From: Octopus sinensis
Lineage: Eukaryota
Length of the DNA: 64,000 bases
Assembly (NCBI RefSeq): GCF_006345805.1
Contig: NC_043023.1
Span: 17,546,001-17,610,000, forward strand
Direction of reading: 5' to 3'
Under the pieces are notes generated by a model. The model saw only the letters and a list, made by a program, of their open reading frames with translations. It did no database searches and was not told the origin of the DNA. This document shows, piece by piece, positions 17,918 through 62,536 of the stretch (positions are counted from its first letter, which is position 1; each line of letters starts with the position of its first letter). Made by a program: the position numbers and the translations under genes.

Positions 17918-17989
17918 GGGTTTGTGGAATAATAAACTCCAGGAAATCAAAATAGGAACCTTCAGTAATCTTTCCAGGTTATCATATCT
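17918..17989 (+). pseudogene. LRR exon copy with a lost splice acceptor
   Basis: GLWNNKLQEIKIGTFSNLSRLSYL, donor GTAAGT intact; upstream reads TTTTATGTTCCGTGT where paralogues read TTTTATGTTTCAG. Confidence 0.7.
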
Positions 17990-19069
17990 GTAAGTTGAAT
18001 CAATGTTCTTTTCTAGTATTTCATTGACGGTATATTCCTAAATATGCAACATCTTCTCATCCTTCCATTTAAGCTCCCAATTCCGTCTTTCCAAAGATGT
18101 ATTTCATTGTTTATGAATGTCGGTGATTGTGATTGTGGGCCCATTTCTGTGATATGGGATATATGAGAGCATGATACATCAGGGAAAACACTGACTGCAT
18201 GCATATGTATATCTCTTGGTATGCGAGAATATTGACACGTACGAACTTTATTTCTAGATGGACGCTAAATAACATCCTTGTATAAGCGTTGTAGCTGCTT
18301 ATTCAGAACTAAATTATCATCTTTACTACTTATTTTTCCATGTTGTTGTTGTTGTTGTTTTTTCTTCTTCTTCTTCTTCTTCTTCTTCTTCTTCTTCTTC
18401 TTCTTCTTCTTCTTCTTCTTCTTCTTCTTCTTCTTCTTCTTCTTCTTCTTCTTCTTCTTCTTCTTTTTCTTCTGTCCTTTTCCTTCTAATTATCATCGTC
18501 AATTTTCTCACCGTCCGTTTCATCATCAAAATCATTAATTATCATAAAACACCGCGATCAGATGCAGAATCTTCAACACAAACATCGTCATCGCTAACAG
18601 TAACATCCCCACCAACAATATTATCATCATCCATATTATACTCGGCACCATCATAGACATACTAACCCCCATCATTATCAGAAGAATCGACATTAACAAC
18701 ATCACCTCAATCATCAGCATAATAACATCTTCGTCATCAGCACCACCACCATATTTTTTTCTCCTCTGCATCGTCAACATATTCATCATTACCACAACCA
18801 CCACCAGCACCACCACCACAATTATCATCATCGTCATCATCATCACCAGCGTCATCACCCTCATCATCATAGTCAACTTCATCCTCATGCTCATCATCAT
18901 CATCATCATCATCATCATCATCATCATCATCATCTTCATCATCCAGTTTATCATCATCGTGATTTATATTCCATGTTTTCTTTTAATTGTTTAGTCATAA
19001 TTGATTAGCTATTCTGTTACACATGTGTCTTCCACACAAGTTCTTCTGAGCTAAATATTTATTTTACAG

Positions 19070-19141
19070 AGATTTGGATGGTAATGACATCAAGGAAGTC
19101 AAGGCAGAAACATTCCAAAATCTTTTGAGTTTAAGTACACT
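19070..19141 (+). CDS. LRR exon (72 nt, phase 2-2) of adhesion-GPCR-like gene
   Basis: TTTTACAG|A GAT TTG...ACA CT|GTAAGT; DLDGNDIKEVKAETFQNLLSLSTL. Confidence 0.85.
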
Positions 19142-19364
19142 GTAAGTTGAATCATTGTTGTTTATAGTATTTCATGGACGTTATATTTCTAAATGTTTAA
19201 GTCTTCCCATACTTCGTTTTATGCTCCTTCACACGTCTTTACCTTCACTATCTACCTATATCCAAAGTGTGTGCTATTTTGTATGAATGTCTTGGAATAT
19301 GAGGGCCAATTCCTGAGAATTGGGATTTATGGGTGTAAGAAAATTAACAGTAAATGTTACCCGT

Positions 19365-20274
19365 TAGAAAATAGTAAAAAGTGACAAAACTACAGAAGAC
19401 TTGTTTTAAAAGGTTAAAGAATATATATTTAAGTCAATATGTCTGAAGAATATTATAAGTTGTTTTCCTTACAATGACATAGTTTAGAAGAAAGACCGGT
19501 TTCGTGTTTAGCTTTTCAAATTTCTTACGTCGATATGTTTATGTTGAGAAGAGTTATCGTTATGTTTATGTGAAAAGAGTTCTAAATAAGGGGAGGTAAT
19601 AAGTGATTTCTTCCGTGTAAGGGAGATAATCGCTTAATTTTTTTTCTTTTCCTTTGGGGTGAATTTCTCTGTATAAGTATGTTGGAATGGTTAAGTCTGG
19701 GCTTGTACTTTTCAATGAAGAATGTTTCCTTGTTTAGTCTAGTTTGTGTTGATGATCCGATAGCACATTGGTAAAATGGACAGATTAAAAATTGTGGTAG
19801 TAGTTGCTTTGCGCATTTCTCAATGTGCTCACTAAAAGGTATCATTCTGTATTCTGGGAATGCAATCTGTTGTCGATGCAGTGTGCATCTACGTCTGAGT
19901 GATAGTCCCGTGGATCCCACGTAGTCTTGGTGGCAGCCCGAGCATTTTATGACATAAATTATTTTTGAGGCACAAGTAAAATTAGATTTGATCTTGAATT
20001 TCTGTCCCTCTTTGAAGAGGAATTCTGATCCTTCTAGCAGGTTTGGACATGTTGCACAGTTCGGTCTACATAAACATAACGATAACTCTTCTCAACATAA
20101 ACATAACTAAGTAAGAAATTTGAAAAGCTAAACGCGAAACCGGTCTTTCTTCTAAACTATGTCATTGTAAGGAAAAAAAATTATAATATTCTTCAGACAT
20201 ATTGACTTAAATATATATTCTTTAACCTTTTAAAACAAGTCTTCTGTAGTTTTTTCACTTTTTACTATTTTCTA
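19365..20274 (-). mobile_element. Truncated Penelope-like element with inverted terminal arms
   Basis: Arms 19365-19571 and 20068-20274 are inverted; minus strand encodes a GIY-YIG-like C-terminus (YVGSTG...RCTLHRQQI...RLNKETFFIEKYKPRLN). Confidence 0.8.
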
Positions 20275-20436
20275 TATATTCAACCACGTGCTTTCACAAA
20301 CCAACTTTCTTATCTATATCTATCTATCTATTATATATATATATATATATATTATATATATATATATTATATATATATAATATATATATATGAATAAATA
20401 AATGTAGTTTAACGCATGTATAAATCAAATATTTTT

Positions 20437-20522
20437 ACTTTCGACACATGTTTCGAAAATTCCACTGATACCATTCAAAAGGATACACGGTATAAGCAAG
20501 GCAATTTTCTCTTCAGGGAAGT
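20437..20522 (-). ncRNA. Type I hammerhead ribozyme (inverted copy, one stem I mismatch)
   Basis: Minus strand: ACTTCC-CTGAAGA-GAAAATT...AATTTTC-GAAA-C-ATGT-GTC-GAAAGT. Confidence 0.65.
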
Positions 20523-59987: not shown

Positions 59988-60519
59988 TAGAATGTGCAGG
60001 AACACGCTGACATATATCTGAAATGAAGTAAAAGCAGTCTTTGCTTGGCTGAAAGATTTATACCTTCCTATGCTTTCATAAGCTCAAAAAGCGAAATGTT
60101 TGGAAGATGCCCCCAGATACACAAGTTCATTTGGCAATATGGTCCAGTATATTTCTGAACTAGAGAGTAATCGACACCCATAAGAATGTTTCAAGTTCAC
60201 ACTAAGTGAAGACCAATTCAAGGGAAACACATCTACAAACTGCTGAATAATGATATAATGCCTTTCACTGTACATCGTTTCGTTTTTTATCAATAGATTT
60301 TACCACTGATGTCAGTTGACCAGTCATTGGCATTGCTTGTAATATTGCTCGACAATGTATAAAAATATAAACACATACGTATAGATATATGTGTATATAA
60401 ACGTATGTATATATGTATATCTTTGTGTTGAACAGAGTATCGTATGAGAGTCGAAATGGAAGAGCTCCGTTCAAGAGCAATGAAAGAATATTTGAAAGAT
60501 TCGAACTCTAACACAAAAT

Positions 60520-61085
60520 TGAACTTCACACAGTGAAAGAAACGCAGTGAACCATATTAAAAAATGGATTCTGAAGAAAAAGACGCTGACACAGAATTGA
60601 ACTACGCACGGTGAAAAGTAATATACACACAGTGAAAAATATATGAAAAACGATTCTGAAGAAACAATGTCAACGCAGAAGTGAACTACACTCAGTCAAT
60701 AATAATATGTCCGAATAATAATCCGAAGGATTGATAAATCAGTTCGTTATGTGTTAGTCGCACTAAAAGTAATAATATCGACTTGGTACTACCTGCGGAA
60801 TTTTGAAAAAACATATAATGATGTAGTGTGCAATACATAGATTTGAAAAAAGATAATAATAATTGCCGATAGGGGTATATCGGAGAAAACCAGGATATAA
60901 TTAATTGCTCTGTGATAAGGAAATGATAAAAGATTTTGTTGTTCCGTGTAAGACATAGATTTGAAAATAATAATAATTATTATTCCCGATAGGTGTATAT
61001 CGGAGAAATCTATGTAATAATTGCTTTCTCTGTGATAGGAAAATGAAAGAAAACAATTTTTGGTGAATTGCCGATATGTGTGTAT
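60520..61085. repeat. Diverged local tandem repeats (~80-90 bp and ~120 bp units)
   Basis: Recurring CAGTGAAA...GATTCTGAAGAAA...TGAACTAC and ACATAGATTTGAAAA...CCGATAGG..TATATCGGAGAAA. Confidence 0.6.
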
Positions 61086-61722
61086 CGGAATGCTGTGTAA
61101 ATTTTGAAAAACGATATAGGTTCTGTGGAACAAAAATAATTCTGGTTAGAAAAAACAAAATGAAACAGAATTAACGACATATTTATAGTAATACCAGATT
61201 TCAAACGTTAGCAAATATCCATCTGTCGATTCAGTTGCAAAGAAAGTTAGAATGGACAAATAAAACCCAAGCCGTTTTGTGATTGAGGATACTAAACAAG
61301 TGCTCTTTGAAAGGACTCCGGATGAAATGGAAGTGACTAGTGAAGAACACGTTGTAGAAAATTCTGAAATTATAGAATCTGAGCCGTCTGTTACAGGAAA
61401 AGGTCCTTCTACTGAAAATGCTTCGCCGGGGAATCATTTTAGTACAAACACTTTATTTTAAAGATAGTGAAAGTTTGCAGGTAACCAATACAGTTTCTGC
61501 CGAGAAAAGTGTAGCGAAAGGGAAATATGTAGAAATGAATTATACATGTATAATAATAGTGTGTAAATTTTGAACACACACATGTTTATATATATATATA
61601 TATATATATATATATATATATGTGTGTGTGTGTGTGTGTGTGTGTGTGTGTGTGTGTGTGTGTGTGTGTGTGTGTGTGTAATTCTGGTTAGAAGAAATAG
61701 AAACAAACCTCAAAGTGGGAGG

Positions 61723-61892
61723 TGTTGTGGCGGACGCCTCCAGGTGCGAAGTGGGTTGCTCCACTACTAAGAAATACTGGACTAACACAGTCAGCAGTTT
61801 CAGGCGGCGAGGGCGCTGTTCGGGCTGGTCTCACAGACGCCGAAGTACGTGGTGATGAGGTGGGACAAATTAGTGTCGAGTAGGACACAACG
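61723..61892 (+). mobile_element. Possible short LTR preceded by a polypurine tract
   Basis: AAAGTGGGAGG|TGTTGTG...CACAACG. Confidence 0.3.
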
Positions 61893-62421
61893 ATATAGAA
61901 GGTACGGAAGGTATTTGAAAAGAGTTTTATAGATTACAGAGAAATGCTGAGACAACCCAAATCCCAATATCTTCTGATGACACTTAAAATTTGTTCAAAA
62001 GTATTTTGGATCGGATTAAATGATTTTGTTTTCTTTTTTTCCTGACATGAATTTAACTCTCCTTATGACGTAAGATTTGTATCTGATGTCTTCAAGCACA
62101 ACATTTCTGATTGTTGGTTTTTTTCTGATTCGAAACTTTTTGTAATTGGCTTCATTGATTACCCTGGCTTGTCTTCAACGTTTTACTTAGGCACCTGAAT
62201 ACATTCAGGCGTGCTGCTAGGATCAGTATCCTACTACTACTACTACTGCTGTTGCTTTTGCTGCTGCTACTACTACTGTATAGAGTAGTAGTTGTACTAT
62301 ATAGATTAGTACATTTACTTGCCCAGCCACCATCATCAATATCCATGTATTTCCAGGATATAATCCACACCAATGAATTCTCTGAGATATATCTCATACA
62401 AATGTTTTATTTCTTTTTCAG

Positions 62422-62536
62422 TGTTTTGTAAAGAAAGCACAACCTCAACAAGCAATGGTACTTTCTATTGGCCAATTACAAAAATAGGAACTGATGTGAC
62501 GATCCCATGTCATGCAAATGTAGCAACGAGACACTG
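62422..62536 (+). CDS. Hormone-receptor motif (HRM) exon of adhesion-GPCR-like gene (115 nt, phase 1-2)
   Basis: CTTTTTCAG|TG TTT TGT...CAC TG|GTTCGT; MFCKESTTSTSNGTFYWPITKIGTDVTIPCHANVATRH(C) fits the HRM pattern C...WPxTxxG...PC...AxRxC. Confidence 0.88.

Follow-up and report, generated by a model that had tools for sequence, protein, structure and literature searches.

Within the window, that is, the whole stretch of 64,000 nucleotides of Octopus sinensis DNA analyzed here (NC_043023.1, positions 17,546,001 to 17,610,000), 11 forward-strand exons were delineated, each starting after AG and ending before GT, which encode an LRR array with its C-terminal cap (LRRCT), followed by predicted three-finger (LU) and SEA domains and the first part of a predicted HRM domain (Table 1). 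All 11 starts come from the first-pass annotation, which had joined them into one stop-free frame with many N-glycosylation sequons, and this is confirmed: the spliced exons comprise 1155 nt and 384 codons without a stop (the other two frames contain 36 and 26 stops) and include 10 sequons, among them all eight types listed there. Among 20,000 AG..GT chains of equal lengths taken at random from the window, none is stop-free in any frame; this control includes no model of the earlier reader's own selection of exons, so that homology and the RNA joints carry more weight. From LRRCT to HRM, the frame, the splice sites and the full set of 12 LU cysteines are preserved in seven exons that span 21 kb with repeat-rich introns. 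Weak donors are present at 22978 (GTCAGC) and 62536 (GTTCGT), yet transcripts run past the exon edge at the latter. Exons for a signal peptide, LRRNT, GAIN or 7TM were not detected within the window; tblastn with 76 proteins and an LRR profile added neither another complete LRR exon nor a start exon there, and the 17 kb upstream, which contain a 100-N gap, yielded no start exon. The exons are real.

Table 1. Exons and exon-like features of the receptor gene in the window.
Feature	Positions	Strand	Remarks
LRR-exon copy without AG acceptor	17918..17989	+	72 nt; donor GTAAGT; ccgtgt at the acceptor position
LRR exon, phase 2-2	19070..19141	+	72 nt, AG..GTAAGT; Pfam LRR_8 E 0.028
LRR exon, phase 2-2	22907..22978	+	AG..GTCAGC, weak donor
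LRR exon, phase 2-2	29694..29765	+	AG..GTAAGT; Pfam LRR_8 E 0.0015
Last LRR exon, family-typical, phase 2-2	35179..35250	+	AG..GTATGT
LRR C-terminal cap exon, phase 2-1	41279..41448	+	170 nt; 84% to P0001
LU exon 1, phase 1-0 (predicted domain)	45510..45601	+	cysteines 1-4 of 12; RNA joint to 48418
LU exon 2, phase 0-1 (predicted domain)	48418..48601	+	Pfam UPAR_LY6_2 E 0.0093, below cut-off; Lynx2-type cysteine spacing
SEA exon 1, phase 1-0 (predicted domain)	50551..50645	+	RNA joints on both sides
SEA exon 2, phase 0-2 (predicted domain)	54467..54519	+	RNA joint 54519>57198
SEA exon 3, phase 2-1 (predicted domain)	57198..57355	+	RNA joint 57355>62422; no GSVVV/furin motif in domain
HRM first exon, phase 1-2 (predicted domain)	62422..62536	+	Pfam HRM E 0.087; 92% to P0002

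Of the junctions, for which the first-pass annotation had proposed mapping of RNA, those within 45400-62700 held up: all five introns there, each GT..AG, are crossed by contigs, placed at a 90% threshold, in three of four RNA-like runs, whose RNA status is a guess; none is on record as RNA. The joints 48601>50551 and 50645>54467 are seen in runs X1, X2 and X3, 45601>48418 and 54519>57198 in X2 and X3, and 57355>62422 in X2; run X9 showed no exon joints. The sole support for the intron 41448>45510 is a loose end resembling the end of the cap exon. Past 62536, loose ends in X2 and X3, which are absent from the window, continue in frame and resemble the second HRM exon of the paralogue P0042. The contig sequences are not identical to the window (all three runs differ at 45554, for instance), so their source is a close paralogue or a related allele or species. 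A joint that leaves out SEA (48601>62422) reaches a depth of 394.6 in X2 and 19.2 in X3. Its base at 62422 departs from that of the joint with SEA and agrees with P0002, a model that has no SEA; alternative splicing of SEA in the window gene was accordingly not accepted, and another copy or allele is the more likely source.

Among the LRR exons, 19070-19141 matches a repeat of P0004 at 78%, and 35179-35250 matches the last LRR of P0003, P0006 and P0008 at 65-74%. Exon 22907-22978, which carries Tyr instead of the conserved Asn of the repeat and has no Pfam match at E<=1, may, judging from its sequence, be a candidate for skipping. Given the absence of an AG acceptor, the copy at 17918-17989, with about 72-74% DNA identity, flanks included, to the 19070 and 22907 cassettes, is probably a dead exon that is not used. 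Two partial LRR cassettes sit within introns. Structural comparisons relied on a confident model of the close paralogue P0003 (pLDDT 85.6) rather than of the window's own protein; its LRRs and cap match Toll, NgR2, VLR and FLRT2 (Z 10-12), and a single-sequence fold of P0004 (pLDDT 41.9) was uninformative past the LRRs. Together with the fold matches described below, the P0003 model supports the LRR-LRRCT-LU-SEA-HRM reading of the first-pass annotation.

The 12 cysteines of the LU region are spaced 2,4,7,6,16,5,10,8,2,0,4, with a scaffold ending in CC-x4-CN; eight of the 11 spacings, the last seven included, equal those of Lynx2, and five those of Lypd6 (cysteine positions of both taken from PMC7582953). 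Eight of the nine invariant cysteine columns in a 34-row alignment fall in LU, and exon 48418-48601 is 98% to P0001, itself named 'ly6/PLAUR domain-containing protein 1-like'. Residues 113-199 of the P0003 model align with CD59, Lynx2, Lynx1 and Prod1 over 69-79 residues at moderate Z-scores (7.6-7.8), Lynx2 being the tied best match (Z 7.8, rmsd 2.8, 79 of 86 residues aligned), and a helix past the second finger (residues 159-169) lies where the long helix of Lynx2 sits; an Atlas match to a UPAR/Ly6 cluster was also moderate (TM 0.51 by target). The UPAR_LY6_2 score of 16.6 bits, obtained for one exon only, misses the Pfam gathering cut-off of 31.5, Pfam reports no LU family in the full-length relatives, and a two-LU relative used as query had no sequence match in the PDB at E<=10. 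A stand-alone LU protein of a tunicate, P0055, matches weakly (E 1e-4). The prediction of a Lynx2-like three-finger domain encoded by the 45510-48601 exons is thus supported by cysteine pattern and modeled fold. The domain is like Lynx2/LYPD1 and LYPD6 in having 12 cysteines and, by prediction, an additional disulfide and helix in its third finger; unlike these GPI-anchored single-domain proteins, the octopus LU is internal to a large receptor, and its first finger is shorter.

Residues 200-297 of the P0003 model show the ferredoxin-like beta-alpha-beta-beta-alpha-beta arrangement over about 100 residues and match TMPRSS6 (Z 8.8) and a mouse TMPRSS SEA (Z 8.6), as well as unrelated ferredoxin-like folds such as MscS (Z 8.9). 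At E<=0.001, Foldseek gave a single match, to the zebrafish Gpr126 ectodomain 6v55 (E 2.2e-5), with an alignment that spans SEA and HRM (model 201-363 to chain 400-563, Z 7.5, rmsd 9.2); ESM Atlas feature searches with P0054 and P0003 returned no usable match. Pfam scores of LU, SEA and HRM are all under the cut-offs, including SEA in the relatives P0054 (E 5.5e-5) and P0023 (E 2.9e-4); a family HRM profile recognizes exon 62422-62536 with E 3.7e-20. A motif scan of the window SEA found neither a GSVVV-type nor an R-X-K/R-R motif, and no GSVVV is visible in the beta2-beta3 loop of the aligned rows; self-cleavage of SEA was rejected given the absence of the motif. In this respect, the domain differs from the self-cleaving or furin-cleaved SEA of MUC1, ADGRF1/F5 and human GPR126 and resembles that of zebrafish Gpr126, which has no furin site either; the SEA of Gpr126, its cleavage loop and regulation by the ectodomain are covered in PMC6954182.

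After 62536 the gene runs on past the window. The GAIN/GPS and 7TM exons that the first-pass annotation expected downstream are absent from all six frames of the window, and their presence in the gene is projected from relatives. Of 34 cluster representatives bearing HRM, 23 continue into GAIN, eight end in a second SEA and three simply stop; the full order LRRCT-LU-SEA-HRM-GAIN-7TM occurs in 16 of 57 representatives, from octopus, gastropods, a bivalve and one further assembly, and 15 of these 16 carry the cleavage motif H-L-T-[S/N]-F. Pfam 7tm_2 is found in P0008 (E 1e-34) and P0011 (E 1.8e-37), and the solved structures nearest to the family profile are ADGRG2 (E 5e-94) and ADGRG6 (E 1e-84). 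The LRRCT-LU tree included 49 rows, after removal of six short matches and of 15 cluster members that were redundant. In this tree, the window protein forms a starred clade of three rows with P0001 and P0002; P0002 (93% over 88 shared columns), the nearest relative with sequence past HRM, runs through GAIN subdomain A. The starred 8-row clade of the window protein includes P0006, with GPS and the start of TM1, and no gene model with a complete 7TM. Thus, the adhesion-GPCR assignment of the first-pass annotation is supported through relatives, with the GAIN-7TM part lying outside the window and missing from some of them.

The window gene probably encodes an ADGRG2/G6-like adhesion GPCR of the octopus 'group 3', with the spliced LRR-cap-LU-SEA-HRM ectodomain likely continuing into GAIN and 7TM and with predicted Stachel-type signaling; against this reading are the LU fold matches with Z under 8 and the non-specific SEA fold (MscS). 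An unlikely alternative is that the gene is a membrane-free paralogue (LRR-LU-SEA-HRM-SEA) whose secreted product would serve the receptor family as a decoy or soluble ligand. Its sister P0003, which gives the highest full-length match to the window (73%) and also the highest over SEA (72%), belongs to the eight representatives that close with a second SEA and have neither GAIN nor 7TM, and P0042, the nearest to the RNA loose end in the second HRM exon, stops shortly past HRM. The eight are named from three Octopus species, their second SEA is mostly partial, and four of them (P0016, P0018, P0021 and P0027) share a C-terminal tail with the 7TM member P0014. However, the continuation of P0002 into GAIN argues for the receptor, and the GAIN-less models may be artefacts of annotating tandem arrays.

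By analogy with ADGRG6 and ADGRG2, the LRR array and the Lynx2-type LU of the predicted receptor would bind a matrix or cell-surface partner, in place of the CUB-PTX of Gpr126, and SEA could serve as an uncleaved spacer or hinge before HRM-GAIN, as in zebrafish Gpr126. GAIN, given the cleavage motif of the relatives, would cleave itself and retain the tethered agonist (Stachel), and ligand or force would be the trigger; binding or pull might then reshape the ectodomain or bare the Stachel peptide, activating a G protein. With LRR cassettes in phase 2-2 and LU and SEA modules in phase 1-1, paralogues could diversify in LRR number and through loss or doubling of whole LU, SEA or HRM modules. A different input to a 7TM receptor would follow if LU acted like Lynx2 or fly Bero and, instead of binding matrix, engaged a neighbor within its membrane, be it a nicotinic-type channel, a second GPCR or the 7TM of its own receptor; adhesion signaling would then be linked to channel modulation. 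The Lynx2-like spacings, the helix and the tied best match point in this direction, as do the reported expression of octopus-specific expansions in axial nerve cord, suckers and skin (PMC6408891) and a fly LU protein reported to act as a cis-ligand of a GPCR (bioRxiv 10.64898/2026.06.29.735401). Nevertheless, we consider this quite unlikely, given that a common fold and cysteine pattern say nothing on function, that the family LU has no sequence-level PDB match at E<=10, and that LU lies between LRRs and SEA, distant from the membrane, and is absent from the paralogue models P0038, P0040 and P0042.

The octopus-expanded 'group 3' was described by Ritschard et al. (2019; PMC6408891), and the corresponding RefSeq name is 'adhesion GPCR G6-like' of Octopus. 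Two accessions of its supplement table were recovered among the homologues, A0A0L8FLR8 (P0072, a Death-domain member) and A0A0L8HDZ7 (P0073), and in the LRRCT-LU tree the window protein nests among Octopus paralogues with P0033 and P0039, which represent the clusters holding these two. Group 3 was defined on the 7TM, a region outside the window, and shares LRR, GPS and 7TM with the family; the available text names only these and Death domains, and proposes the expansion as a complement to protocadherins in arm nerve cord, suckers and skin (PMC6408891). The window gene is therefore a further member of the published family, with most of the domain layout newly labeled.

SSF57302 is the snake-toxin-like superfamily. 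The InterPro supplement of PMC6408891 contains one unlabelled SSF57302 row, one HRM row and no SEA, Ly-6 or uPAR entry. LU-domain GPCRs have been reported in starfish (LyAr2, LyAp2 and XP_033635539.1), molluscs and arthropods; LyAr2 has 1113 aa, with LU at 224-305, and is reportedly 58% similar to Lynx2; a 2026 figure legend (PMC13719153) names LRR, GPS, LU and 7TM (PMC9410279, PMC11595613, PMC13719153). Like the window family, these proteins carry one LU in a 7TM-receptor ectodomain and are annotated as adhesion GPCR G2/G6-like, a likeness by description; the accessible text on them describes no SEA or HRM, no module shuffling and no link to the octopus expansion. The molluscan example in PMC13719153 could belong to the same family. 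The rarity attributed to the layout by the first-pass annotation was therefore overstated, given that the order is mollusc-wide and that the octopus expansion and LU-bearing GPCRs are in print. A search from an abalone protein reached three proteins, all of Haliotis. Its statement that no characterised adhesion GPCR is known with a three-finger domain between LRR and SEA stands for the literature searched, which omits most subscription papers and yielded no functionally characterised receptor of such a layout; within it, and in the body text of PMC13719153, no text gives the full five-module order, and the SEA domain, the Lynx2-type signature, whole-module gain or loss and the GAIN-less forms of the octopus family were not found. 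The first 300,000 of 412,533 characters of a 2026 adhesion-GPCR review contain no mention of Ly6, three-finger, mollusc or octopus.

The ADGRA receptors have the layout LRR-Ig-HRM-GAIN. They share the N-terminal LRR array and cap with the window family, but the interval between LRRCT and HRM is occupied here by LU and SEA, without Ig, and the family GAIN and 7TM fit ADGRG best; the ADGRA comparison of the earlier annotation accordingly gives way to ADGRG2/G6, the nearest vertebrate kin by profile against solved structures. The SEA-HormR-GAIN-7TM core is common to the family and to ADGRG6/Gpr126 and ADGRG2, the best sequence and structural matches, whereas the latter have CUB-PTX in place of LRR-LRRCT-LU, and the family comprises many paralogues with variable modules. 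This suggests that ADGRG receptors possess an old common SEA-HRM-GAIN core to which different tips were fitted by lineage. The finding is a gain in annotation, not a new kind of system: modules are now named in the largely unlabelled ectodomain of an octopus-specific expansion, the Lynx2-type LU as a candidate binding surface and the Gpr126-like core offer tests, and module loss with the frame kept is a proposed route to paralogue diversity.

A broader scenario, which we regard as a long shot, is that an ancient ADGRG-like receptor with a Lynx2-type LU (molluscs, perhaps starfish) expanded combinatorially in octopus, through LRR number, LU/SEA/HRM swaps and secreted GAIN-less decoys, with LU acting on nicotinic-type receptors, including the chemotactile receptors, in suckers and arm nerve cord, and coupling touch or adhesion to chemosensory channels. 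Least probable of all is a decaying tandem duplicate without a functional protein, its RNA joints coming from transcribed relatives: the copy without an acceptor, the cassette with a weak donor and lost Asn, the partial intronic cassettes, the divergent RNA contigs and the failure to find a start exon upstream (100-N gap included) would fit, but the seven LRRCT-HRM exons are intact, and no database paralogue exceeds 72% over SEA, yet contigs placed at the 90% threshold cross the SEA junctions.

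The gene in the window is probably an ADGRG-like adhesion GPCR. All eleven exons proposed between 19070 and 62536 by the first-pass annotation are preceded by AG and followed by GT, and the N-glycosylation sequons it had reported in the spliced frame were recovered as well (10 counted). Joined by their coordinates, the exons yield 1155 nt (384 codons) with zero stops, compared with 36 and 26 stops in the remaining frames, and no stop-free chain was found among 20,000 random AG..GT chains with matching lengths. The four LRR exons are each 72 nt long (phase 2-2), and the LU (Ly6/uPAR three-finger) and SEA modules, both phase 1-1, consist of two exons (276 nt) and three exons (306 nt), respectively. 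The proposed start at 17918 is a fifth LRR copy that lacks an acceptor AG. Neither a start exon for the receptor gene nor GAIN or 7TM sequence was found across the window; the start exons may lie across or past the assembly gap (see the table).

Contigs from four sequencing runs, guessed to be RNA, were compared with window positions 45400-62700 at 90% likeness. All five introns within this range are spanned by contigs and are GT..AG; given that the contigs differ from the window in places, the splicing shown belongs to a related allele, a related species or a close paralogue. The spanning contigs come from runs X1, X2 and X3, which derive from two studies, and no exon joint was seen in those of run X9. 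Loose ends past 62536 in X2 and X3 provide an in-frame continuation that resembles the second HRM exon of the database relative P0042 and is absent from the window, so the gene extends past the window; a loose end ahead of 45510 in X3 is similar to the end of the LRR-cap exon. The joint 48601>62422, which omits the 306-nt SEA module in frame, is also present: it has high depth in X2, above that of the SEA-including joints there, and occurs in X3. This joint has a different base at 62422 and agrees with the SEA-less model P0002, so it was read as belonging to another copy and not as proof of alternative splicing.

Splice joints spanned by contigs, and repeats and relics identified in the window
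Feature	Position	Strand	Detail
Splice joint	45601>48418		runs X2, X3
Splice joint	48601>50551		runs X1, X2, X3
Splice joint	50645>54467		runs X1, X2, X3
Splice joint	54519>57198		runs X2, X3
Splice joint	57355>62422		run X2
Partial LRR cassette	about 22316-22425		
Partial LRR cassette	about 29893-30005		
GIY-YIG-like ORF	19582-20091	minus	Pfam E 0.004; between two LRR exons
258-aa ORF	20702-21478		between two LRR exons
Inverted repeat pair	19365-19571/20068-20274		
Inverted repeat pair	20381-20745/21806-22180		
349-aa stop-to-stop ORF	10673-11722		zinc knuckle, Pfam zf-CCHC E 0.0009
Mariner-type transposase fragment	14324-14941	minus	Pfam Transposase_1 E 6e-23; split by assembly gap
Assembly gap	14788-14887		100 N; within transposase fragment
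Tandem 183-bp unit	2870-3413		x3
Tandem 189-bp unit	33928-34304		x2
388-bp direct duplication	24136-24908		94%
AT-rich dinucleotide array	8234-9926		1.7 kb; GC about 11%

The search with the LU exon retrieved 8 proteins, every one named from Octopus, that with the P0008 region 20 (19 named from Octopus), and the exhaustive search with P0007 38, including proteins from Argonauta, Nucella, Dreissena and Haliotis. Using module profiles made from the same family proteins, and counting on gene models some of which are fragmentary, we assigned the full order LRRCT-LU-SEA-HRM-GAIN-7TM to 16 of 57 cluster representatives, 15 of these 16 carrying the cleavage-site H-L-T-[S/N]-F. The HRM (n=34) is followed by GAIN in 23 cases and by a second SEA without GAIN in 8, and ends the model in 3. 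Other models lack LU (P0038, P0040, P0042), SEA (P0002, P0035), HRM (P0024-26, P0028) or both SEA and HRM (P0005, P0006, P0034), or have a doubled LU (P0010, P0030). In one O. bimaculoides member (P0033, P0071, P0072) the C-terminus carries a Death domain, scored at Pfam E 3e-6 for P0033 and previously recorded in PMC6408891.

The nearest solved relatives of the family are ADGRG2 and ADGRG6. In the LRRCT-LU tree, the window protein falls in a group with P0001 and P0002 (99/91) within a clade of eight rows. Of these rows, P0002 and P0005 extend to GAIN, P0006 extends to GPS and TM1, P0003 terminates in a second SEA, and a complete 7TM is present in none. In eight models (P0003, P0010, P0016, P0018, P0019, P0021, P0027, P0047; the first seven named from three Octopus species) a second SEA, partial in most cases, follows the HRM, and GAIN and 7TM are absent. 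Four of them finish with the usual C-terminal tail of the family. The eight could be secreted paralogues that consist of the ectodomain alone, or artefacts of annotation. That the window gene product is itself a secreted GAIN-less form, to which the ending of P0003 would conform and the GAIN of P0002 would not, appears unlikely.

The domain reading of the first-pass annotation was borne out by an AlphaFold2 model of P0003 residues 294-661, whose identity to the window across the common span is 73% (34-row alignment; pLDDT 85.6, pTM 0.69). The first 107 residues of the model resemble LRR-plus-cap proteins (Z 10-12), residues 113-199 resemble CD59, Lynx2, Lynx1 and Prod1 (Z 7.6-7.8), residues 198-298 resemble TMPRSS SEA domains (Z 8.6-8.8) and unrelated ferredoxin-like folds just as well, and residues 201-363 resemble the SEA-HormR region of zebrafish Gpr126, the sole Foldseek match at E<=0.001. 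LU, SEA and HRM each fall under the Pfam cut-off, hence the database names 'G6-like', 'toll-like receptor 5' and 'ly6/PLAUR domain-containing protein 1-like'. The LU domain of the window protein contains 12 cysteines, with 8 of 11 spacings, the last seven among them, equal to those of Lynx2 and 5 of 11 equal to those of Lypd6 (positions from the accessible part of PMC7582953), and a helix is predicted in the P0003 model at the site of the long helix of Lynx2. The LU domain acting in cis on a neighbouring channel or receptor, a reading which these Lynx-like features would suit and which is compatible with a 7TM receptor, is doubtful.

For the ADGRG-like receptor, the observations are of anatomy, and inference from Gpr126 and ADGRG2 as to ligand, cleavage and signalling suggests that the LRR-LU tip would engage a partner, an uncleaved SEA would set conformation or spacing, and a self-cleaved GAIN would keep the tethered agonist over the 7TM. 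A motif scan of the window SEA found neither GSVVV nor a furin motif, to which SEA cleavage is tied in the accessible part of PMC6954182. Most octopus family members have two SEA cysteines (window 54467-57355), at the ends of strand 2 and strand 3, the former missing from non-octopus members; judging from sequence, an added disulfide is possible. Alignment of ADGRG2 87-181 with family profile positions 219-306 (LU end and SEA) was non-significant (score -5.5); it could be a hint of a degenerate SEA-like module in the ADGRG2 N-terminal region and is not evidence for one.

According to the available portion of PMC6408891, adhesion GPCR group 3 is an octopus-specific expansion in which 5 of 22 sequences contain LRRs and one contains a Death domain, and its expression is reported from the axial nerve cord, suckers, skin and gills; the group-3 table there includes two homologues of the window protein, and the portion of the supplement available has no SEA, Ly-6 or uPAR labels, with one unlabelled SSF57302 row. 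The exons are real, and the gene is one member among many of a published family, its layout common across molluscs. Nor is a three-finger domain in a GPCR new: the accessible parts of the respective papers describe starfish adhesion GPCRs with a single LU domain (PMC9410279, PMC11595613), of which LyAr2 resembles the molluscan proteins in length and LU position, the two features compared, and LU-bearing GPCRs in molluscs and arthropods (PMC13719153). A figure legend in the latter names LRR and GPS, so the family may already be depicted there. In the open-access literature searched, we found no description of the SEA domain of the family, the Lynx2-type signature, module gain or loss along symmetrical exons, or the GAIN-less paralogue models.

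LRR exons and adjoining intron DNA were copied together at 17461-19227, 22316-23187 and 29893-30005 (identity 70-75%). Two of the duplicated cassettes are partial and another has no acceptor, a sign of LRR cassette turnover apparently still under way; that the entire locus is a decaying duplicate, as such damaged copies might suggest and the stop-free frame would not, is very improbable. The region 19365-22180 looks like a relic of what we take to be a Penelope-type retroelement. The zinc-knuckle ORF, followed by additional open stretches up to about 13400, is probably a retroelement ORF1 relic, and the 183-bp, 189-bp and 388-bp repeats are probably transposon or short interspersed repeats.
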